Source of the DNA: Candidatus Doudnabacteria bacterium
Lineage (GTDB): Bacteria; Patescibacteriota; Doudnabacteria; UBA920
Direction of reading: 5' to 3'
DNA: 64,000 bases
NCBI GenBank assembly: GCA_003151625.1
Contig: PLYC01000007.1
Location: 2,929-66,928, forward strand
In this document: positions 1-45,736 of the stretch, piece by piece
How the letters are laid out: every line of letters starts with the position of its first letter
How positions within the stretch are numbered: the first letter of the stretch is position 1
Notes under the pieces: model-generated
Seen by the model: only the letters and a program-made list of their open reading frames with translations
What the model was told of the DNA's origin: nothing
Database searches by the model: none
Translations under genes and position numbers: made by a program

Positions 1-1104
1 GCTCTCTCCGGCCGCGTACCGGTTAAAGTAACCAACGAAAACGGCGACATCCATGTTGGCGATTATATTACTCTGTCCAAAGAACTCTCTGGTTATGGAA
101 TGAAGGCTACGTATTCCGGTGAAGTTATCGGCCACGCCCTGGAAAATTTTGAACCCGGCGCGACCAGTACGGGCGGCAGCATTTTGGTTTTCCTGGGGAT
201 TGGTTTCCAAAATATTAACAACACTTTTGTTTTGGGAGACAACGACGGCCAATTAACGTCCGCGACTTCATCTCTGGTTACCCAGGATAACTTCCTAATT
301 AACCAACAAGGTACAGGCAGCCTGCTCCAGCTCCAGTCCGGCGGCCAGAACCGTTTGCTCATTGCCAACAACGGTTCATTTAACCTGTTCGCCAGCACGA
401 CAATTTCCACCTCCACTATATTAAGCGTCTTTAACGGAACCACCACCGAGTTCAGCATTACGGCCGCCGGGCACATTACCGTGGGTCAGGACACGGCCGG
501 GACCGCTACAATTAAAGCGGGAAACAACCAGACCACCGTAACCTTTAACGTGCCTTACGATTCTGTGCCCAAGATTGCGGTTACTGTGCAGGGTTTGCCC
601 AATTTCTTTTACGGCGTGGCCACCAAAACGCCGGACGGCTTTGTCATCCAGACGAGCCAGCCGGTTACGGCCGATACAAGCTTTGATTGGATAGCTCTTG
701 CTCAGCCTTCCACTTCAACATCCGTATCTAGTTTAAATGCGCAAATAGTAGTGGTCAGCCGGCCGGCCGGCCAGGGACAAATTAGTTCAGTTGGTTCTAT
801 TGCCTCCGGCACTTCTACCCCGACCGGTAGCGTCGGGGCCACTCCTCCCGACGCCTCTTCTACCCCTCCGGCTTCTGGTACTGTTGCCGGAACATCCACT
901 ACCGCTTCCGTCACCCCTCCACCCGCTACTACCTCAACCCCTCCGGCCGTTGTAACTCCGCCAGCAGCTCCTCCCGCTGCCGCTACTCCGCCAGCCGATA
1001 TAACTCCAGCCGCCGCCCCTGCCGTCCTAACCCCCTTGCCAGCCCAAAATCAGCCGACCGCCGACCCAGCGCCAGCTCCCGCGGTAAATACCGCAGGATC
1101 ATAG
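1..1104 (+). CDS. Secreted/surface protein with Thr/Pro/Ala-rich C-terminal low-complexity tail. It is 5'-partial: the frame is open back to window position 1.
   Basis: Open frame from nt 1. C-terminal approx 100 aa are a TPPA-rich repeat typical of cell-surface linkers. Followed by hairpin+T-run terminator at 1152-1180. Confidence 0.55.
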   Translation, partial: ALSGRVPVKVTNENGDIHVGDYITLSKELSGYGMKATYSGEVIGHALENFEPGATSTGGSILVFLGIGFQNINNTFVLGDNDGQLTSATSSLVTQDNFLINQQGTGSLLQLQSGGQNRLLIANNGSFNLFASTTISTSTILSVFNGTTTEFSITAAGHITVGQDTAGTATIKAGNNQTTVTFNVPYDSVPKIAVTVQGLPNFFYGVATKTPDGFVIQTSQPVTADTSFDWIALAQPSTSTSVSSLNAQIVVVSRPAGQGQISSVGSIASGTSTPTGSVGATPPDASSTPPASGTVAGTSTTASVTPPPATTSTPPAVVTPPAAPPAAATPPADITPAAAPAVLTPLPAQNQPTADPAPAPAVNTAGS

Positions 1105-1151
1105 ACAGTTTAAAAAGCCAAGTTTTATAAATTATCCTGTTATGTTACAAT

Positions 1152-3425: not shown

Positions 3426-4118
3426 CTATTTAGTCACTACCAGGGCGATTTTTCTGGTAGAGTCTATGCTTTTGGTTGCGTTATTCCAATCCGACGCAGC
3501 GTTTTGCAGCACCGAGAAAGGGTATTCGTTTCCGTCTCCGCCGTCTGTACCGGGGTCGTTGACTATAAATGTATCGCCTTTAAAACCGCGCAGGACTATC
3601 ATATGGTAAAGCGGGCCGCCGTTAACGTATTGAGTGTTGCCTAAAAGCTTGGCGTTTATGGGTAAAAGAATCGGATGGTTATTAATCAGCGCGATTTTTA
3701 AATCGTTTTCCGTAAAATTTGGAATTTGGGTAATATTTAGGCCAAACGCACCTTCGGCCATTTTGGTGGTGGCATCGGCGCCGGTATTTTGGTTATAGCC
3801 TAAATTGGCCTGTTCCCATTTTTTTAAATTGTCTATGGCATTTTGCGCCGCGGTTGCCGGCAGCCGGTCTTCTGTCGTGCCGGTTAAAAACGCGTTGGCC
3901 ATGGTAATGCTGGTTTCTTCGCAGTCTTCGTTGCGGCTCCAGTTATCGGTTGGCGCCTGCGCGCTAAAAGGCACGGCCAGCACAAAATTTATAGGAATGG
4001 TTTTTGGCGCAACCATTTTAAAAATAAACAAAGCCGCCACTGCCAGTAAAACAAAAACAATTCCGGCGTAAAGCATATCCAGTTTTGGGAATTTTATTTG
4101 CATTAAATTGAATCTCAA
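3426..4118 (-). CDS. Secreted C39-like (YvpB / Peptidase_C39_2-type) papain-fold cysteine peptidase, signal-anchored
   Basis: N-terminal TM. Motif QAPTDNWSRNEDCEETSITMANAFL (N.DCE.TS..MA catalytic Cys region) and downstream YHMIVLRGF His region. Paralog of 4188..4997. Confidence 0.5.
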   Translation of the reverse strand: MRFNLMQIKFPKLDMLYAGIVFVLLAVAALFIFKMVAPKTIPINFVLAVPFSAQAPTDNWSRNEDCEETSITMANAFLTGTTEDRLPATAAQNAIDNLKKWEQANLGYNQNTGADATTKMAEGAFGLNITQIPNFTENDLKIALINNHPILLPINAKLLGNTQYVNGGPLYHMIVLRGFKGDTFIVNDPGTDGGDGNEYPFSVLQNAASDWNNATKSIDSTRKIALVVTK

Positions 4119-4187: not shown

Positions 4188-4997
4188 TTATTTCCAAACC
4201 ACAATCATGACTTTTTTTGTTTGGTCAATTGTATTGGTATTGTGATCCCAGTCCGCTCCCGCGTTGTGGAGAGTTTCAAAAGTGTATGGGTAATTTTGGC
4301 CGCGCCTGGTGCCGGAATCGTTTGTAACAAGGCCGTTTGCCGTGTATCCGCGAACAACCAGCATATGATAAATCGGCCCGGGTTGCGTGTAGTTGGGATT
4401 GCCTATAATTTGACCGTTAACCGGCAAAATAACCACGTGGTTCTGGTTAAGTTGGTTTTTTATATCCTGCAAAGTATAGTCTGTAAAAACTTTTGTTTGC
4501 AAACCGTAAAATCCCTGAATCATTTGGGCTGTTTCGGCAGCCGTGGTATCTAAGTGGTATCCAAGGTGGCTGTCTTCCCAGTTATTCAAATTATTCATTT
4601 CGGTTTCGACTTGCGAAGCCGCGAGTACCACATTTGTATTACCGGTTAAATACGTATTAGCCATAAGCGCAGAGGCCTCTTCGCAGTCTTCGTTGTGGGC
4701 AAGATCCCAATTGGCGGTAGGGGCTTGGGAGGTAAAGGGGATTGGTAAGTTTAAGACACTTGGCTCTGCCGGAGTCGAGGTCGCGATTAGTGCTTGATTT
4801 TGGGAAGACAGCCTGCCGTTTCCGGTTGTGGTGGCTGACATCCCCAATTGGTCGTTATAATTTAAAACGATCGGTGTTTTACTGTTAATATAATAAAAAG
4901 CAGCCGCGACGAAAATTATTGCGGCAATAAAGAAAAAAAACATAACTCTCGAAGATTTTTTGTGGGGGGTAATTTTTGATATTTTAAAATCGTCCAT
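4188..4997 (-). CDS. Secreted C39-like cysteine peptidase, paralog of 3426..4118
   Basis: QAPTANWDLAHNEDCEEASALMANTYL and YHMLVVRGY, conserved with the neighbouring gene. N-terminal TM with lysine-rich start. Confidence 0.5.
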   Translation of the reverse strand: MDDFKISKITPHKKSSRVMFFFFIAAIIFVAAAFYYINSKTPIVLNYNDQLGMSATTTGNGRLSSQNQALIATSTPAEPSVLNLPIPFTSQAPTANWDLAHNEDCEEASALMANTYLTGNTNVVLAASQVETEMNNLNNWEDSHLGYHLDTTAAETAQMIQGFYGLQTKVFTDYTLQDIKNQLNQNHVVILPVNGQIIGNPNYTQPGPIYHMLVVRGYTANGLVTNDSGTRRGQNYPYTFETLHNAGADWDHNTNTIDQTKKVMIVVWK

Positions 4998-24894: not shown

Positions 24895-26022
24895 TTATTT
24901 CACCGGTGAAGGAACGTTAAGTCTCATTTCTTTTTGAACGCTGGGCATTTTGTCTTCGGGAAATTCAAAGTTTCCCCAGCCGTATTTGTCCGGGTCAAAA
25001 CCCTGGCCGCAGGTGGTTTCAATCAAAGCAGTGCAAATTTGGTAAGGGTCTAAGTTTGCGGCCGGGCGGCGGTCTTCAAGGTAGCCGCGGCCTTTGTTGG
25101 CGGTTTCCATTGGGATACGTATGCTGGCGCCGCGGTCGGAAACGCCGTAGCGAAAATCTTTGTAACTGCAGGTTTCGTGCTTGCCGGTTAAGCGCTTATC
25201 GTTATCGGCGCCGTAAACGCGAATATGCTGTTTGGCAAAGCGTCCAAGTTTTTCACAGGCTTGCTTAATAACTTCTAATCCTCCGTGTTCGCGCATAGCC
25301 CTTGTGGAATAGTTGGTATGTCCGCCGGCGCCGTTCCAGTCACCATTCATTGGTTTGGGGTCGAGTTTGGCGTAAGCGTTATATTCTTCACCCAGGCGGT
25401 AAAGTAACCATCGTGTAAGCCAAAGTTGGTCACCGACTTCCAAGGGACCCAAAGGGCCAACCTGGAACTCCCACTGTGCCGGCATAACCTCGGCGTTAAT
25501 GCCGGAAATCATCAATCCTGCCTCTAGGCAGGCTTTCAGGTGAGCTTCGATTAATGGGCGCCCATGGACTTCGTCGTAGCCCACGCCGCAGTAATAGCGC
25601 CCCTGCGGGGAAGGATAACCGCCGGTCGGCCAGCCAAACGGCCAGTCGTTTTTTCCGTAAAGCGTATACTCCTGTTCAATGCCAAACCATGGGTCTTGGT
25701 CTTTAAATTTTTCCGCGACTTGGCTTAAAACGCGGCGGGTGTTGGTTACGTGCGGCGTGCCATCGGCGTTAAGAACTTCGCACATTACCAAAAGGTTATC
25801 GCCTTTGCTAATTGGGTCGGGGATGTAGTAAACCGGTTTTAGCTGGCAGTCGGAAAAATGGCCTTCGGCCTGTTCGGTGGAACTGCCGTCAAATCCCCAC
25901 ATAGGAACGTCTTCCAATTTTCTTACCGGCCCGTTTATTATTTTAGTTTTGCTTCTTAGTTTAGCCGTGGGCTTTCTGCCGTCCAGCCAAATGTACTCTG
26001 CCATAACTTTGCCGTTTGTCAT
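24895..26022 (-). CDS. glnII: Glutamine synthetase, type II (eukaryote-like GSII)
   Basis: 375 aa. AEYIWLDG N-terminus. Conserved GS catalytic blocks GPYYCGVG and NGAGGHTN. Confidence 0.85.
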   Translation of the reverse strand: MTNGKVMAEYIWLDGRKPTAKLRSKTKIINGPVRKLEDVPMWGFDGSSTEQAEGHFSDCQLKPVYYIPDPISKGDNLLVMCEVLNADGTPHVTNTRRVLSQVAEKFKDQDPWFGIEQEYTLYGKNDWPFGWPTGGYPSPQGRYYCGVGYDEVHGRPLIEAHLKACLEAGLMISGINAEVMPAQWEFQVGPLGPLEVGDQLWLTRWLLYRLGEEYNAYAKLDPKPMNGDWNGAGGHTNYSTRAMREHGGLEVIKQACEKLGRFAKQHIRVYGADNDKRLTGKHETCSYKDFRYGVSDRGASIRIPMETANKGRGYLEDRRPAANLDPYQICTALIETTCGQGFDPDKYGWGNFEFPEDKMPSVQKEMRLNVPSPVK

Positions 26023-26047
26023 TTTTCTTTCCTTCCCCCTCCATTAA

Positions 26048-26141
26048 TCGCTGATATTTACGCTGATATGTCGCTGATTCTGAAGTTTAGATTCAGCGTT
26101 GTATCAGCGGTGGTGTTAAAAGCAGCGTTCGTTCAGCGTTT
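26048..26141. repeat. CGCTGA-box palindromic element, copy 1 (within glnII 5' leader)
   Basis: CGCTGAtatttaCGCTGAtatgtCGCTGA ... then TCAGCG x4 at approx 10-11-nt spacing. Second copy at 58621-58722 shares an identical 18-mer cgctgatatgtcgctgat. Confidence 0.55.
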
Positions 26142-26149
26142 GCAAATAA

Positions 26150-26260
26150 ATAAAACACCTTTTTTGACGGAATTCTCCCGTAAGAAAATTGGTGTTTTTT
26201 TTAACTCTAGTATTTAGTTTTACTTAATTATATTATCAGATTAAATTATTATGTCAAGCC
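26150..26260 (-). promoter_or_regulatory. glnII promoter plus leader hairpin/U-tract (attenuator or sRNA terminator candidate)
   Basis: Minus strand: TTGACA-17nt-TGaTAATAT-like -10. Then AAAAAACACC-[31-nt loop with ACGG/CCGU stem]-GGUGUUUU AUUUAUUUG, approx 130 nt upstream of the ATG. Confidence 0.4.
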
Positions 26261-26437
26261 TTAAAATTGGGTTATTTTGTCGAATTTTATAAGTTTTCCA
26301 CAAAGTAAGGGAAAGGGGGCGGCGCAAACCTGATGCTTGTTTGCGTGCCCCCGGGTTGCTGTTTTATTGGGTGCGGTGTGCACGGGGCACCCGTAAAACG
26401 TTGCCGTTGACGGAAGCGCGAACGCTTCGCTGTATGA

Positions 26438-26635
26438 TTAACTGAGAATTCCCGAGTCTCCGCGCGCTCTTTTCGGCGGCTCGATGTGAACGAATGAGCG
26501 AATACGATACCCGCTGATGGGAGTAACCACGTCATTGTCGGGCAGACATCCGATCGTGCGCATAAACGCAGCTAGCCCGTCTTCCGAAGGCGTGCTATCG
26601 GTATATACGCCTCCAAGGACGGGGCCATCACTCAT
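26438..26635 (-). CDS. Candidate small protein B (66 aa, MSDGPVLGGVYTDSTPSEDGLAAFMRTIGCLPDNDVV...)
   Basis: AGGAAGGA RBS 5 nt upstream of ATG. Translationally coupled to ORF A. Confidence 0.3.
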   Translation of the reverse strand: MSDGPVLGGVYTDSTPSEDGLAAFMRTIGCLPDNDVVTPISGYRIRSFVHIEPPKRARGDSGILS

Positions 26636-26816
26636 GGGTTCCTTCCTCTTGCGGGCTGAGCGCGCCAAGGTCTGGCACCGGCGCTGCCTGCACGTGGGGC
26701 GGCGGCAGGTACGGACGCATTCTGGTTCCTGCTACAAATTCGCGTTCGAGCGCGTCCGACACATCGCTTCCGGGAAGAATCCCGGAGTAATTATTCGCGG
26801 TCACGTTTTCCTCCAT
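26633..26816 (-). CDS. Candidate small protein A (62 aa) in the GC-rich island. Its stop overlaps the next start as ATGA.
   Basis: MEENVTANNYSGILPGSDVSDALEREFVAG... Coding status uncertain in a GC-rich background. Confidence 0.25.
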
Positions 26817-26983
26817 ATCTGGCTTACAGCCAGATTGTTTGAATTATGCAGCCTGGCAGCTGCTTGTGCCTATTGTACGCCAAAGCCAAACTTTTGGTCA
26901 AGTTAAAAAACTGACCCAAAGTGCCTTAGATCAGCGTTTAATCCCTGCCTGCCGCAGGCAGGAGCGTAAATATCTACGTAAAA

Positions 26984-28021
26984 TCAGCGGCTATCAAAAT
27001 GCGTCAACTTTTTGAACTCCGCAAATCGTTTGTTTATATCGCGGGCGGTTATTTCCTGCAGTCGTTTTGTACCTAGCTTTTCCACGGAAAAAGAGGCCAA
27101 AACCGAACCCGCCACGCAGGCGCGTTTGAGGTTTTCCCAGGAAATATTATCTGCCTTTGCCAAATAGCCAAACATTCCGCCGGCAAAGCTGTCGCCCGCG
27201 CCGGTTGGGTCGGTTACGTCCTCCAGGGGAAATCCCGGAAGATGGAAAATTTCAACCCCCCCAAGCCCCCTCTTTTGAAAAGAGGGAGAGCTTCTGAACA
27301 TCAATAATCCGTATTCGCCTTGCTTTATAATCAGCGTCGCATTTTTACCCATCATCCCCATTATATGCTTTGCCCCCTTTACCAAATTGTGTTCGCCGCT
27401 AAGCTGGCGCGCTTCGGAATCGTTTATAATAAAAATGTTAATCTTTTTTAAAACTTCAGCCAACTGTTTTGGCGCTTTTTTTATCCACAAATTCATAGTA
27501 TCCAGCCCGACAAATTTTGGCTTTTTAATTTGAGCCAGCACTTCCAATTGTAGGGAAGGGTGGATATTGCCCAAAAAAACATACGGCGATTGTTTATGTG
27601 CCGCCGATAACTTTGGCTTGAATTGTTCAAATACACCCAGTTTTGTAAATAAAGTGGTACGGTTGTTTAAATCAAAACTGTATTTGCCGCCCCAGGCAAA
27701 AGTTTGGCCGGCAGATTGTTCCAGATCCGATAAATCTATATTTTTGCCGGATAGAATCACCCGATACTTATTAGTAAAATCTTTTCCCACAGCCCCAACC
27801 AAGCTAGGTCTCGAAAAATTACTCGCAGCCAAACAAAAATAGCTCCCGCTACCGCCCAAAGTCTTGTTTACTTTCCCAAACGGCGTTTCTATGCTGTCAA
27901 AAGCCACACTGCCGACAATTAACAAATTTGAAGTTGACCCCGTTAAAGGTCCAGTGCTTTTAGGCACTGGCAATCGCCTTTGGCGATTGACTTTTAACGG
28001 GGTTGACGATTTTTTATTCAT
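26984..28021 (-). CDS. PfkB-family carbohydrate/nucleoside kinase (ribokinase-like)
   Basis: DPTGAGDSFAGG PfkB signature 2 and N-terminal GG region. The first approx 28 codons overlap a triple-hairpin palindrome (27940-28018), so an alternative TTG start at LLIVGS is possible. An internal palindrome cccctcttttgaaaagaggg lies at 27250-27292. Confidence 0.7.
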   Translation of the reverse strand: MNKKSSTPLKVNRQRRLPVPKSTGPLTGSTSNLLIVGSVAFDSIETPFGKVNKTLGGSGSYFCLAASNFSRPSLVGAVGKDFTNKYRVILSGKNIDLSDLEQSAGQTFAWGGKYSFDLNNRTTLFTKLGVFEQFKPKLSAAHKQSPYVFLGNIHPSLQLEVLAQIKKPKFVGLDTMNLWIKKAPKQLAEVLKKINIFIINDSEARQLSGEHNLVKGAKHIMGMMGKNATLIIKQGEYGLLMFRSSPSFQKRGLGGVEIFHLPGFPLEDVTDPTGAGDSFAGGMFGYLAKADNISWENLKRACVAGSVLASFSVEKLGTKRLQEITARDINKRFAEFKKLTHFDSR

Positions 28022-28192: not shown

Positions 28193-28501
28193 ATGCAATC
28201 GAATGGAATTAAATTGCAAGCAGGTTTGGCCTGTTTGTATTGCAACTATGCCCTCCAGAAAAGGAGGGGATGGGAGCACGTCGATATTTGCCAAAAGGAA
28301 GAGTGTGATCCTCACGGCAGCGGGGATCCCAGGCGGTGCCCAAATTGCGGAAGCGGCCATTTTGTGTTTATGGCCGAGGCAAAAGGCAGCGTACAGTTGC
28401 AGTGTTCGGTTTGCGATTCGTTCTTTGAGTCGCGGCACCTTACTCGGCGGTTGGCCGTTATGATTCCGGACGCTCTTAGTTTATCCGGGGAGCCGCGCTA
28501 A
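28193..28501 (+). CDS. High-GC zinc-ribbon protein with four CxxC pairs
   Basis: CLYC, CQKEEC, CPNC, CSVC. RBS ggaggagac. Strong terminator immediately downstream. Confidence 0.45.
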   Translation: MQSNGIKLQAGLACLYCNYALQKRRGWEHVDICQKEECDPHGSGDPRRCPNCGSGHFVFMAEAKGSVQLQCSVCDSFFESRHLTRRLAVMIPDALSLSGEPR

Positions 28502-29391: not shown

Positions 29392-30909
29392 TTACCCCAT
29401 GCTATGCCTTAGTATTGCGGCTTGCTCAATTAGTTTGCCGGCGTTTTTGCCGTTGCGGAATTGTTTGTGCAGGCGAGCCGAGACGAGCTGGTGTTCCTGT
29501 TCGTTTAAATATTTTGGCGTAAACGGTTTGCCTAAATATTTTTCTATTTCTTCAACGTCTTTAATAATGTCTTTCCATGCCGGATATTTTTTGGCCAAGT
29601 TCACCAAACCTTGCCGGTAAAAAAATTTGCCGGCAAAATATAAATCATGCTTTAAATTTTTATAATGTTTTTCCAGCAATTCCAAATTGCCGGCTTTGCG
29701 CGCCGCGGCCAAACCCCGGCCGGTGCCAATTAGTTCTGGTGGGATGCCTAAGGAATAAAGCACGGCAGTAAAACTAATGGCCCTGGGCAGGCTGACTTTG
29801 CCCATGCCGCGACTGTATCCAAACAGGCCAATGTGCTGGACGCGTTCGCGCCTTTTAGGTATGTGTTTGGCCAGGTCGTTTACCAAAGGCGCTATACCTT
29901 CCACGGTTTGTTTGTAGGCGGCCTCAAATGGCTTAATGGCTTCAATTAGCTGTTTTTCTTCTTCAGCAGTCATAATTACAGCTTTACTTTTTGGCAGGCC
30001 TGTTTCTAAAGCTTTAATTGCTTTTATTACTGTGGCTTTGGGGTAATCATATCTAAACGCGCTTTGGATTGTCACCGTTCTAATTCCTTGGTATTCTTTT
30101 ATAAATCTTTCCGGCCGCAAAGGATATAAACCGCCGCGGAACGGCAAAGCCCCGCAACCAATAACCGGAAATAAATCTATTTTATGTTTTTTGGCGAATT
30201 TGGTGTAACGCGACAGTGCGATTTTTATGGCAATTACGGTTGGTACAATTCCGGAATTTAATGCCGGATCTGAGCGTGCGACATATGGCCTTAAATACGG
30301 CGGGTTAAAACCAAAAATCTTTTTGTGCTCATGCAAATATTTTTCCAGAATTTTATCCGAATTTATTATGGTGCTTACTTGTTCGAACAAAGGAACCATT
30401 AAAACGTGGTTTAGCAAACCTTTCTCAAAACGGTTAAGCGGATGTTTTAAATTGGCAATCTCCCTGAAAGCTTCCTGAATAGCGAGCATTTCCTCCGCGC
30501 TTTCCGTCATTGGTAAAATAACTTCAAACAGCGGGGGGGTGTGCATGCCCACTTGTTTTGCCAGGCCGGCGGAACTTGCTATCCCCATTAAGGCTCGGCT
30601 CATTCTAAATTCCGTCTCAACTTTAGGGTTTGGCAAACGGAAAGTCAAAAATTTTTCTTTGCCCAGGGGGTGCTTTTTAAAGTATTCATAGTATTGAGCC
30701 ATCAGGCGTTCTAAAATAGCTTCGTCTACCAGTTTGCCTTCCCAGTCCCATTTGTATTCGCTTATGCCCAAATCTGAAAAAGACAAAAATAATTCCTTGG
30801 CTTCTTCTATGGTTGGAATAAAATTTTCAGTATGCCAAAAAGGCCTGGCGGCGTGGTCTGGATGCTGGGTGGCCATGGTGGCCGGTATTTTTCTTGCGAC
30901 TTTCTTCAT
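29392..30909 (-). CDS. ppcA: Archaeal-type phosphoenolpyruvate carboxylase (PepcA)
   Basis: MATQHPD near the N-terminus (archaeal-type PEPC hallmark). Approx 500 aa. GRGG and C-terminal NGK motifs. Confidence 0.75.
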   Translation of the reverse strand: MKKVARKIPATMATQHPDHAARPFWHTENFIPTIEEAKELFLSFSDLGISEYKWDWEGKLVDEAILERLMAQYYEYFKKHPLGKEKFLTFRLPNPKVETEFRMSRALMGIASSAGLAKQVGMHTPPLFEVILPMTESAEEMLAIQEAFREIANLKHPLNRFEKGLLNHVLMVPLFEQVSTIINSDKILEKYLHEHKKIFGFNPPYLRPYVARSDPALNSGIVPTVIAIKIALSRYTKFAKKHKIDLFPVIGCGALPFRGGLYPLRPERFIKEYQGIRTVTIQSAFRYDYPKATVIKAIKALETGLPKSKAVIMTAEEEKQLIEAIKPFEAAYKQTVEGIAPLVNDLAKHIPKRRERVQHIGLFGYSRGMGKVSLPRAISFTAVLYSLGIPPELIGTGRGLAAARKAGNLELLEKHYKNLKHDLYFAGKFFYRQGLVNLAKKYPAWKDIIKDVEEIEKYLGKPFTPKYLNEQEHQLVSARLHKQFRNGKNAGKLIEQAAILRHSMG

Positions 30910-44828: not shown

Positions 44829-44935
44829 GTTAATTTTTAGAGTCATCCTTACGCCAGTGAGGTGACTTTTGCCCAATGCATCGGACAAATGAAATAGACG
44901 ACTGGCAAACAAACCCACTTATAAGGAGGGGGTTT

Positions 44936-45736
44936 ATGCAACAACATAAGTTTTCTACGCTCACCATCGGTGCGATGGTGATTTTGGCCATGCTCTTGAC
45001 CGGTTGCGGTAAGGGCACGGATGTTGTCACCGGTCATCTGCCGGTGTCAGCTGCGCTTGCTCAAGTTCGGGAGGCAATCGTACCCCTACCGCCGGCCAAA
45101 CGGGCGGCGTACATGCAGCAGCATTTCCCTGATTTGGGTCAGCAGCTAGTCTGGTTCCTGCGGGAACACAACACGCTGCCGAACGGCGCCACCGTGCAGA
45201 ACGTTGAGTTCTTTGCCGGTTCCTTGGAGAAGGTGAAAGCCGAGGACGGCAACGGCGTGACCAACGAGGGGTTCTTCGAGAACCAACTCGTGGCGCGCGT
45301 CCACATCGTGGGGCAGCAAAAGCCGGTGGATGTCATCGTTTCTTGTCTTAATGGCGCGTTTAATCTGCCGGGTAATCTCGTACAGGCTGGCATGACACCG
45401 CTCGGAACCCAGACCCCGGTCGAAAGGTTCACCATTGCCAACGGCGAGGGAATTGTTCCCCATGTGGGGTACATCACCGCAGTAGAGCTTGCCCGAAAGC
45501 ACCACATTATGCTGTATCGTGGCAAGAAGCAGGATCCCGTCCATATCATCTCCTACGACGAGGCGCTGAAGGCGGACACCGACCAGACGCAGATTACTGC
45601 CGGGGTGAAGCCGGGCGACAAGTTTGACCTCATCGCTGGCGCGTATACTCCGGCGCCTAAGGCGGCGCCTCGCAAGCACCTGCGCGCTCCTGTTGGGAAG
45701 CGGGCGAAGGTGAAGCGGATCTCGTTTCGCCGCTAG
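44936..45736 (+). CDS. High-GC lipoprotein, hypothetical
   Basis: Lipobox LLTGC. Strong RBS aaggagggg. Approx 60% GC versus AT-rich flanks. Terminator follows. Confidence 0.55.
   Translation: MQQHKFSTLTIGAMVILAMLLTGCGKGTDVVTGHLPVSAALAQVREAIVPLPPAKRAAYMQQHFPDLGQQLVWFLREHNTLPNGATVQNVEFFAGSLEKVKAEDGNGVTNEGFFENQLVARVHIVGQQKPVDVIVSCLNGAFNLPGNLVQAGMTPLGTQTPVERFTIANGEGIVPHVGYITAVELARKHHIMLYRGKKQDPVHIISYDEALKADTDQTQITAGVKPGDKFDLIAGAYTPAPKAAPRKHLRAPVGKRAKVKRISFRR

Follow-up and report, generated by a model that had tools for sequence, protein, structure and literature searches.

We examined a stretch of 64,000 nucleotides (nt) of Candidatus Doudnabacteria bacterium (contig PLYC01000007.1, hereafter the window), focusing on the GC-rich island that separates, on the minus strand, the gene of a pfkB-family kinase (pfkB) from that of a glutamine synthetase (glnII). 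The island is a real but orphan feature, and we tentatively favor its interpretation as an autonomous transcription unit, the product of which would act, if at all, as RNA, with the two small open reading frames (ORFs) that it contains, ORF1 and ORF2, being incidental. Such a structured-RNA reading is possible but unproven, and it is derived from the composition of the island, from its comparison with the only other copy found, and from the tests of the coding character of its ORFs.

The mean GC content of the window is 0.429 and rises to 0.56 to 0.62 in 200-nt windows across positions 26300 to 26800, which confirms the GC-rich island that an earlier reading of the bare sequence (the sequence-only reading) had placed at 26290 to 26900, even though its limits are wider than was noted there: it begins at the pfkB stop (26984) and extends over about 680 nt, as far as the conserved TTGTGGAAAAC (26303 to 26293). 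The other window stretches lacking a long ORF have GC contents of 0.25 to 0.50, and none besides the island exceeds 0.50. The composition of the island is beyond chance, whereas the layout of its ORFs is not.

Among the related loci, the same island family is found only in L001. The glnII genes of the window and of L001 are 97% identical (92% at third codon positions), and the flanks of the region of interest are 95 to 99% identical, whereas a tract of about 860 nt, running from about 27083 in the 3' end of pfkB to about 26225 in the glnII promoter (4720 to 5790 in L001), is far more diverged. In the last 99 nt of pfkB, which form part of this tract, the identity to L001 drops from 97% to 68 to 72%, and the third codon positions are saturated, with 13 of 31 identical (about 42%, as counted from the alignment). 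The tract is best explained, judging from these alignments, by homologous recombination with a more distant island-bearing lineage. Within it, the block formed by the island promoter, two 5' hairpins, and AUGGAGGAAA retains 72 to 77% identity between the two copies, and the 3' module, which occupies about 130 nt after the ORF2 stop and includes three hairpins, retains 70 to 76%. The hypervariable GC-rich core that lies between these blocks yields 288 matches when the two copies are aligned, compared to 281 ± 5 for shuffled sequence; it corresponds exactly to the span of ORF1 and ORF2 in the window and is occupied by three tiled ORFs (67, 62, and 71 amino acids [aa]) in L001. It follows that the ends of the island are constrained like coding sequence and the "coding" part is unconstrained, which is the reverse of an ordinary gene. 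Moreover, the GC content of 58 to 59% that the core shows in both copies is not what neutral decay in an AT-rich genome would predict.

The conserved ends also carry the RNA-level evidence. In the L001 promoter (TTGACC-17-TACAAT), the two hexamers are kept, the spacer is diverged, and the AGGCACA following the -10 box is identical to that of the window. RNAalifold, run on the two copies, returned five hairpins comprising 40 pairs, all of which form in both copies; with the caveat that only two sequences are compared, the changes consist of five double compensatory ones, five one-sided ones, and no broken pair, and slid controls pair at 8 to 61%. Three of the five hairpins (A to C in Table 1), all GC-rich, are found downstream of ORF2 on the minus strand, where the sequence-only reading had mentioned several. 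Furthermore, the sense strand folds more stably than shuffled sequence in the three islands considered, namely, those of the window, L001, and L002 (z scores of -2.5, -2.3, and -2.8; -1.1 for the antisense strand of the window). Hairpin C, which is terminator-like, was not called in a strict terminator scan, and read-through past it toward the glnII promoter is possible. A long-range pairing between the conserved 5' and 3' modules was not consistently obtained.

The sequence-only reading had also considered an unrecognized large structured RNA, to be abandoned if the island matched a known noncoding RNA family. No such match was found: at the gathering score, Rfam gave nothing in the window, L001, L002, L005, or L013, and a permissive search (E values up to 10) of positions 26000 to 27100 returned four chance-level matches only. 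This test covers RNase P, transfer-messenger RNA (tmRNA), signal recognition particle RNA, 6S RNA, riboswitches, OLE, GOLLD, HEARO, ROOL, raiA, and group I and II introns; in addition, ARAGORN detected no tmRNA. The idea of an unrecognized structured RNA has some support, with the conserved ends, the compensatory changes in five hairpins, and a sense-strand folding 2.3 to 2.8 standard deviations better than that of the shuffles in three islands in its favor, but with two copies it is a low-ranking candidate.

According to the model that we favor, the island would be a lineage-restricted accessory insert in a free slot, extending from the pfkB stop to the glnII upstream control region, of a Doudnabacteria-like genome of the Candidate Phyla Radiation (CPR). 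The sigma-70-like promoter would start a minus-strand RNA of about 570 nt, predicted to contain in order two stem-loops, the AUGGAGGAAA site, the GC-rich core, and three stem-loops, the last of which may be a weak intrinsic terminator located just before the glnII promoter. The promoter, the terminal stem-loops, and the G+C richness of the core would be under selection and the reading frames would not, and the core would be free to vary in sequence and length; therefore, the two "coupled" ORFs would most likely be by-products of a GC-rich sequence poor in stop codons. The product would be a structured RNA, noncoding in effect, and the sequence of any peptide would be irrelevant even if translation took place. 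What the analysis shows is how the island is built, in which relatives it is present or absent, that its ends are constrained, and that it lacks a coding signal; transcription of the unit, its function at the RNA level, and any effect on glnII expression are what we infer here.

Several observations weigh against this model. Shine-Dalgarno-like motifs precede the sense ORFs in every island (window, L001, and L002), and the conserved 5' module ends exactly at AUGGAGGAAA and a start codon, so that it resembles a translation start. Two copies give the covariation no statistical power, and shuffle controls reach the observed values in 60 of 500 and 107 of 500 cases; the hairpin structure was derived from the same two sequences used to test it. 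For a structured RNA, a z score near -2.5 is modest, and much of it may come from the terminal hairpins; a functional RNA with a core of 370 to 620 nt devoid of sequence conservation is likewise unusual. When 139 kb of related DNA were searched with a covariance model of the 3' module, no additional copy turned up. Finally, L017 carries in this slot what is plausibly the gene of an orphan protein of 152 aa, which indicates that protein cassettes land here.

As regards the ORFs, both of those described in the sequence-only reading exist on the minus strand. ORF1 encodes the reported 62 aa, but ORF2 encodes 65 aa and not 66 (76 aa if an upstream TTG is taken as the start), and the junction between them is not a 4-nt ATGA overlap but ATGAGTGA, with an overlap of 8 nt. 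The ribosome-binding site that had been noticed ahead of ORF2 is present (AGGAAGGA, 4 nt ahead of the ATG), and a perfect GGAGG (26814 to 26810, within AUGGAGGAAA) is located 5 nt upstream of the GTG at 26804, from which the 58-aa form of ORF1 would be read; this form is the version recorded in the NCBI/ENA protein collection (P0001). Both ORFs thus show a ribosome-binding site at a spacing suitable for a small ORF, and, being adjacent, co-oriented, and overlapping, they display the layout of a type II toxin-antitoxin pair, a layout that is within chance expectation. In fact, among dinucleotide shuffles, 34% for the window, 17% for L001, and 6% for L002 have two or three sense ORFs that cover as much of the transcript.

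The island shows the absence of protein-coding signal that is generally expected of a noncoding RNA: the GC content by codon position is flat, ORF coverage is within that of the shuffles, and homologues are missing. In particular, the values at the three codon positions are 0.59/0.52/0.56 in ORF2, and the second position ranges from 0.49 to 0.60 over seven ORFs of three islands, whereas genuine genes of the window dip at that position (0.40 to 0.42), as does glnII (0.56/0.42/0.56). A shared-word search of about 5.8 billion proteins gave no match for ORF2 and only itself for ORF1, and a homology search with ORF2 of L002 likewise returned the query alone. An exhaustive HMMER search of 1.84 billion representatives with ORF2 returned two matches (P0019 and P0020; E value of about 1e-5), both internally repetitive proteins; we rejected them as homologues and regard them as artefacts, since their score is the sum of three repeated stretches. 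Four island ORFs gave nothing in Pfam or NCBIfam, and seven gave nothing credible in PADLOC or PHROGs (noise only in the latter). Six-frame Pfam scans, aimed at a possible degraded known gene and covering the window island, the sense frames of L002, L001, and the L017 ORF, were also without match.

Comparison of the islands with each other leads in the same direction. Of what a conserved small ORF would keep, only the start region at AUGGAGGAAA is retained: the 62 and 65 aa products of the window are unrelated to those of 67, 62, and 71 aa of L001, and the patches of similarity between the two loci fall mostly in frames unrelated to the ORFs of either. The best pair of island peptides has an uncorrected p of 0.006, and none is significant after correction for 17 comparisons; L001 and L002 share weak in-frame patches (GAEVLGTF/GSEVLGVF and RRRLRGQ/RRSLRGQ; uncorrected p of 0.006). 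The AlphaFold2 (AF2) single-sequence model of ORF2 consists of one short helix of low confidence (predicted local distance difference test score of 59, predicted template modeling score of 0.24). ORF1 is probably a chance ORF, or at most an incidentally translated one.

The distribution of the island was examined in contigs carrying members of the 90%-identity cluster into which the glutamine synthetase falls, which is annotated as Candidatus Doudnabacteria. In these contigs the order PEP (phosphoenolpyruvate) carboxylase, pfkB, glnII, cupin, EamA is kept. The pfkB-glnII gap is empty in L005, L006 (identical to L007 and L008), L010, and L011, where it contains only the glnII leader of about 260 to 360 nt and the pfkB stop abuts CTGTGGAAAAC. 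A different GC-rich insert of 135 nt is present in L013, and in L015, the contig of which is cut, a further unrelated insert is seen over at least 440 nt; L002 (identical to L003, L004, and L009) has about 560 nt with two tiled ORFs and no detectable similarity to the window island, and L017 has the aforementioned 152-aa orphan gene (245 to 703) with promoter-like and terminator-like signals of its own. The L016 contig is too short to cover the gap. Scans of metagenome and genome collections for the glnII leader motif retrieved three loci, two of them new and with empty sites and the third being the L002 contig. With nothing in it in four lineages and unrelated inserts in four others, the gap appears to be a variable slot between two functional host sequences, of which the window island is one lineage-specific occupant. 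TGTGGAAAAC is found at the same position in empty-site and insert-bearing lineages, with the exception of L017. The horizontally acquired module proposed in the sequence-only reading is therefore retained in a weaker form, as most relatives lack the island and others have unrelated inserts in the gap.

Some side observations concern the same locus in relatives. The 152-aa ORF of L017 is more coding-like (GC of 0.54/0.46/0.55 by codon position), with no Pfam match and no similarity to the other inserts. Short GC-rich palindromic inserts occur in L013 at 400 to 535 (TCCGCCGAAGCCTTGGCGAAGGCGGA, after pfkB) and 780 to 850 (GCCATCCACCGTCGCCAAGGCTATGGTGGAC, within the glnII leader), and in L005 an insert of about 95 nt (approximately 3830 to 3925) separates the leader hairpin from the -10 box of glnII. 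Contig L008 (CAZQFQ010000051.1) is titled "uncultured Candidatus Saccharibacteria"; its glnII is identical to that of L006 and L007, and the one named member of the cluster is annotated as Doudnabacteria, so that the bin is possibly mislabeled.

A serious even if unlikely alternative to the RNA model is an mRNA that encodes two small orphan proteins, which evolve very fast or are swapped between lineages. The island could then be a small accessory operon, the conserved untranslated regions (UTRs) serving as handles for expression or recombination and the proteins being young, disordered, or diversifying. The Shine-Dalgarno-like sites ahead of ORF1, ORF2, and the sense ORFs of L001 and L002, together with the conserved AUGGAGGAAA at the start of ORF1, would be expected of it, but conservation is higher in the UTR-like ends than in the "coding" part. 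The exact coincidence of the variable core with the ORF1-ORF2 span, as well as its three tiled ORFs in L001, also fits small proteins, although the tiling is within chance and codon-position GC is flat. The weak in-frame patches between L001 and L002 are in its favor at an uncorrected p of 0.006, whereas those between the window and L001 are mostly off-frame and no peptide pair survives the correction for 17 tests. The 58-aa ORF1 is recorded as a predicted protein and L017 bears a plausible orphan gene in the same slot; against this, ORF1 and the L002 ORF2 have no homologue beyond themselves, ORF2 matches repeat-protein artefacts only, and its AF2 model is of low confidence. By comparison, we deem it rather improbable that the island is nonfunctional DNA, that is, a decaying foreign GC-rich remnant or a frameshifted lost gene whose hairpins were kept only as terminators or insulators. 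The promoter and the five hairpins are conserved like the adjacent coding sequence, whose third positions are saturated, and they show compensatory changes; the core has a GC content of about 58% in both copies, compared to 25 to 50% for nongenic sequence, whereas AT-biased decay should lower it. A reduced genome of the CPR type is, moreover, expected to delete 0.7 to 0.9 kb of junk. It is nonetheless true that the content of the slot is dispensable, being absent in four lineages and replaced by unrelated sequence in four, that consecutive same-strand ORFs in different frames resemble frameshifted pseudogenes, that the core is unalignable between two related copies, and that no known family is found in any frame. 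The sequence-only reading had reserved the case of a junk insertion for ORFs without conservation in an island absent from all relatives: the ORFs are indeed not conserved, but L001 carries the island.

Two further explanations appear very improbable to us. A horizontally acquired type II toxin-antitoxin pair, or a similar two-gene addiction or defense module, was suggested in the sequence-only reading by the small, co-oriented, and overlapping ORFs and their atypical GC content, to which presence or absence among relatives can be added; this suggestion is not supported, since no toxin or antitoxin domain was found in Pfam, NCBIfam, or PADLOC, homologues and coding composition are lacking, the AF2 model of ORF2 is one short helix, and neither ORF is kept in L001, the nearest island-bearing relative, where the region is unalignable and the frames differ. 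Equally far from probable is the view that the island is what is left of a mobile element (miniature inverted-repeat transposable element, insertion sequence fragment, ORF-less intron, or integron cassette) or that it belongs, in diverged form, to a known RNA family. Neither terminal inverted repeats nor target duplications were found, neither the window nor 12 related loci contained another copy, and there was no match in phage, plasmid, and viral collections and no Rfam match up to an E value of 10; the conserved ends, variable interior, presence/absence polymorphism, and GC content unlike that of the host would agree with such an origin, but the sharp boundaries correspond to host functional sequence, namely, the stop of pfkB and the upstream box of glnII, and are explained without site-specific insertion. 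The window contains no family of repetitive extragenic palindromic (REP)-like hairpins, and inspection of the island by eye noted no attC core motifs.

The island can be compared with several known systems. Long GC-rich intergenic regions (GC-IGRs) of AT-rich genomes are searched by the GC-IGR pipeline (Stav et al. 2019, PMC6429828; Narunsky et al. 2024, PMC11109978). Like the candidates so obtained, the island is long, far richer in G+C than its genome, endowed with stable hairpins, and assigned to no known RNA family; different from them, it is conserved at the ends only, with a center lacking a consensus and with ORFs preceded by Shine-Dalgarno-like sites. In the terms of that approach (PMC11109978), it would be a low-ranking or unnamed candidate, with a number of distinct representatives below five and no consensus for most of its length; GC-IGR candidates are a category and not a family, and most of them were never shown to be functional RNAs. 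With type II toxin-antitoxin operons the island shares a pair of small ORFs that are co-oriented and overlap at stop and start, an own promoter (predicted here), and a patchy distribution, but it does not have a toxin or antitoxin domain, homologues, conservation of the ORFs in the sister island, or coding composition.

Integration or recombination hot spots are known to hold flexible "islets" between conserved core genes. The pfkB-glnII gap behaves similarly in being empty or occupied by unrelated lineage-specific inserts, each resolved insert having its own promoter-like and terminator-like signals, and in the exchange of alleles, as the tract suggests, by homologous recombination through the flanks. 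It differs in that the slot is tiny (0.1 to 0.9 kb), has no integrase, tRNA, or repeats, and, L017 excepted, has a mostly noncoding-like content. In dual-function small RNAs, such as SgrS/SgrT, RNAIII/hld, and SR1/SR1P, the peptide and the base-pairing region are both conserved. The island resembles them as an independently transcribed (predicted here) structured RNA with a ribosome-binding site and one or more short ORFs, whereas it lacks a conserved peptide and a known target-pairing region, and its transcript would be far longer (570 to 810 nt).

Table 1. Features of the island, its flanks, and the glnII upstream region (window positions unless a locus is named; SD, Shine-Dalgarno)
Feature	Position	Strand	Remarks
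pfkB-family kinase gene	26984..28021	-	upstream slot boundary; ORF; PF00294, E=1.2e-24
Palindrome CCTGCCTGCGGCAGGCAGG	26962-26944	-	in 26910..26962 stretch
Terminator-like hairpin with T-run	26935-26910	-	would end the pfkB transcript
Island sigma-70-like promoter, TTGACC-18-TACAAT	26872..26901	-	promoter scan, 10/12 matches
5' hairpin 1, GCAGCUGCCAGGCUGC	26848..26863	-	kept in L001 with one compensatory change, C-G to U-A
5' hairpin 2, AUCUGGCUGUAAGCCAGAU	26817..26835	-	conserved UGUAA loop; one compensatory change, U-A to C-G, in L001
AUGGAGGAAA followed by GTG (26804-26802)	26802..26816	-	SD-like site closing the conserved 5' module; 10-mer identical in L001
ORF1	26628..26816	-	62 aa from ATG (26816-26814); 58 aa from GTG 26804
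Hypervariable GC-rich core	26433..26806	-	374 nt, GC 0.59; L001 counterpart 619 nt, GC 0.58
ORF2	26438..26635	-	65 aa from ATG 26635; stop 26438
3' hairpin A, GAAGCG-UUCG-CGCUUC	26413..26428	-	
3' hairpin B, GUUUUACGGGUGC...GCACCCAAUAAAAC	26361..26399	-	12 pairs; two compensatory and three one-sided changes vs L001
3' hairpin C, GC-rich terminator-like stem	26315..26352	-	interrupted U-run (UUUCCCUUACUUUG); one compensatory change
TTGTGGAAAAC	26293..26303	-	downstream slot boundary; host sequence upstream of the glnII promoter, outside the insert
glnII promoter, TTGACA-16-TAATAT	26257-26230	-	promoter scan
glnII promoter and highly conserved leader	26023..26257	-	97% identity to L001
Leader terminator-like hairpin	~26205-26146	-	between glnII promoter and gene
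Repeat array, CGCTGA copies then TCAGCG copies	26040-26140		also in L001, L005, L013
glnII, 375-aa glutamine synthetase	24895..26022	-	downstream neighbor; ORF, homology, domain scan
Repeat array, GGAACTACGGAA then TTCCGTAGTTCC	L002, ~4830-4950		
Repeat array, ACGAAT then ATTCGT	L016, ~150-260		
Repeated ACTAAAATA-like units	L006, upstream of 4001		

The stretch between the pfkB stop and the island promoter that carries the palindrome and the terminator-like hairpin (26910 to 26962) is not conserved in L001, with 46% identity when gaps are counted. On the opposite side, the glnII upstream region (26023 to 26303) is strikingly conserved in the window, L001, L002, L005, L006, L013, L015, L016, and L017, and presents across lineages, in this order, TGTGGAAAAC, a TTGACA-16/17-TAATAT promoter, and a leader with GTAAAACTAAATA..AGTTAAAAAAAACACC..CGGGAG.AT.CCGTCAAAAAGGTGTTTT. 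The leader looks like an attenuator or a riboswitch-like element for glutamine synthetase; it has no Rfam match, and no glutamine riboswitch or other known nitrogen leader was found. Just before the glnII ribosome-binding site, we could notice lineage-specific short repeat units, the copies of which form an inverted array in most lineages (Table 1). These arrays, conserved in form and not in sequence, are putatively long repeat-built hairpins or protein-binding arrays.

Other parts of the window were noticed for their composition or position. The GC peak of the window (650 to 1150, up to 66%) corresponds to the Pro/Thr/Ala-rich low-complexity tail of a 334-aa protein (100 to 1104, plus strand) and not to RNA. 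An ORF of 286 aa (44876 to 45736, plus strand; 58% GC) has a clear coding signature (0.63/0.40/0.69 by codon position) and no Pfam match; located beside a membrane pyrophosphatase-like gene, it is a probable horizontally acquired orphan gene. Just upstream of pfkB, a patch of 52 to 58% GC contains a Cys-rich ORF of 102 aa (28193 to 28501, plus strand; CxxC ... CPNCG ... CSVC) with weak, subthreshold zinc-ribbon matches (PF12760, E value of 0.002). A 505-aa archaeal-type PEP carboxylase (29392 to 30909, minus strand) adjoins pfkB and glnII in all related contigs, and its syntenic homologues in relatives carry PF14010.

In GC-rich inserts, chance produces small ORFs that overlap and have convincing-looking ribosome-binding sites, and therefore comparative support is needed before such ORFs are annotated as toxin-antitoxin pairs or hypothetical proteins. 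It is possible to imagine, as a more ambitious proposal that we regard as quite improbable, that the island is the founding case of a CPR-specific large RNA or RNA "expression cassette," with selection on its ends and G+C, an interior of 0.4 to 0.6 kb that turns over freely and is exchanged between lineages by recombination through the flanking genes, and the gap as a dedicated landing pad for the repeated birth or capture of such units and of orphan genes like that of L017. In this lineage, the pfkB-glnII gap is a place where the genome is flexible, a hot spot of small size. Junk has little room in reduced CPR genomes, and the island, provided that its transcript is real and functional, would be among the very few candidate structured RNAs for Doudnabacteria or other CPR bacteria; if the favored model is true, it would also be unusual in that selection acts on the ends and the base composition of an RNA whose central sequence is not conserved.

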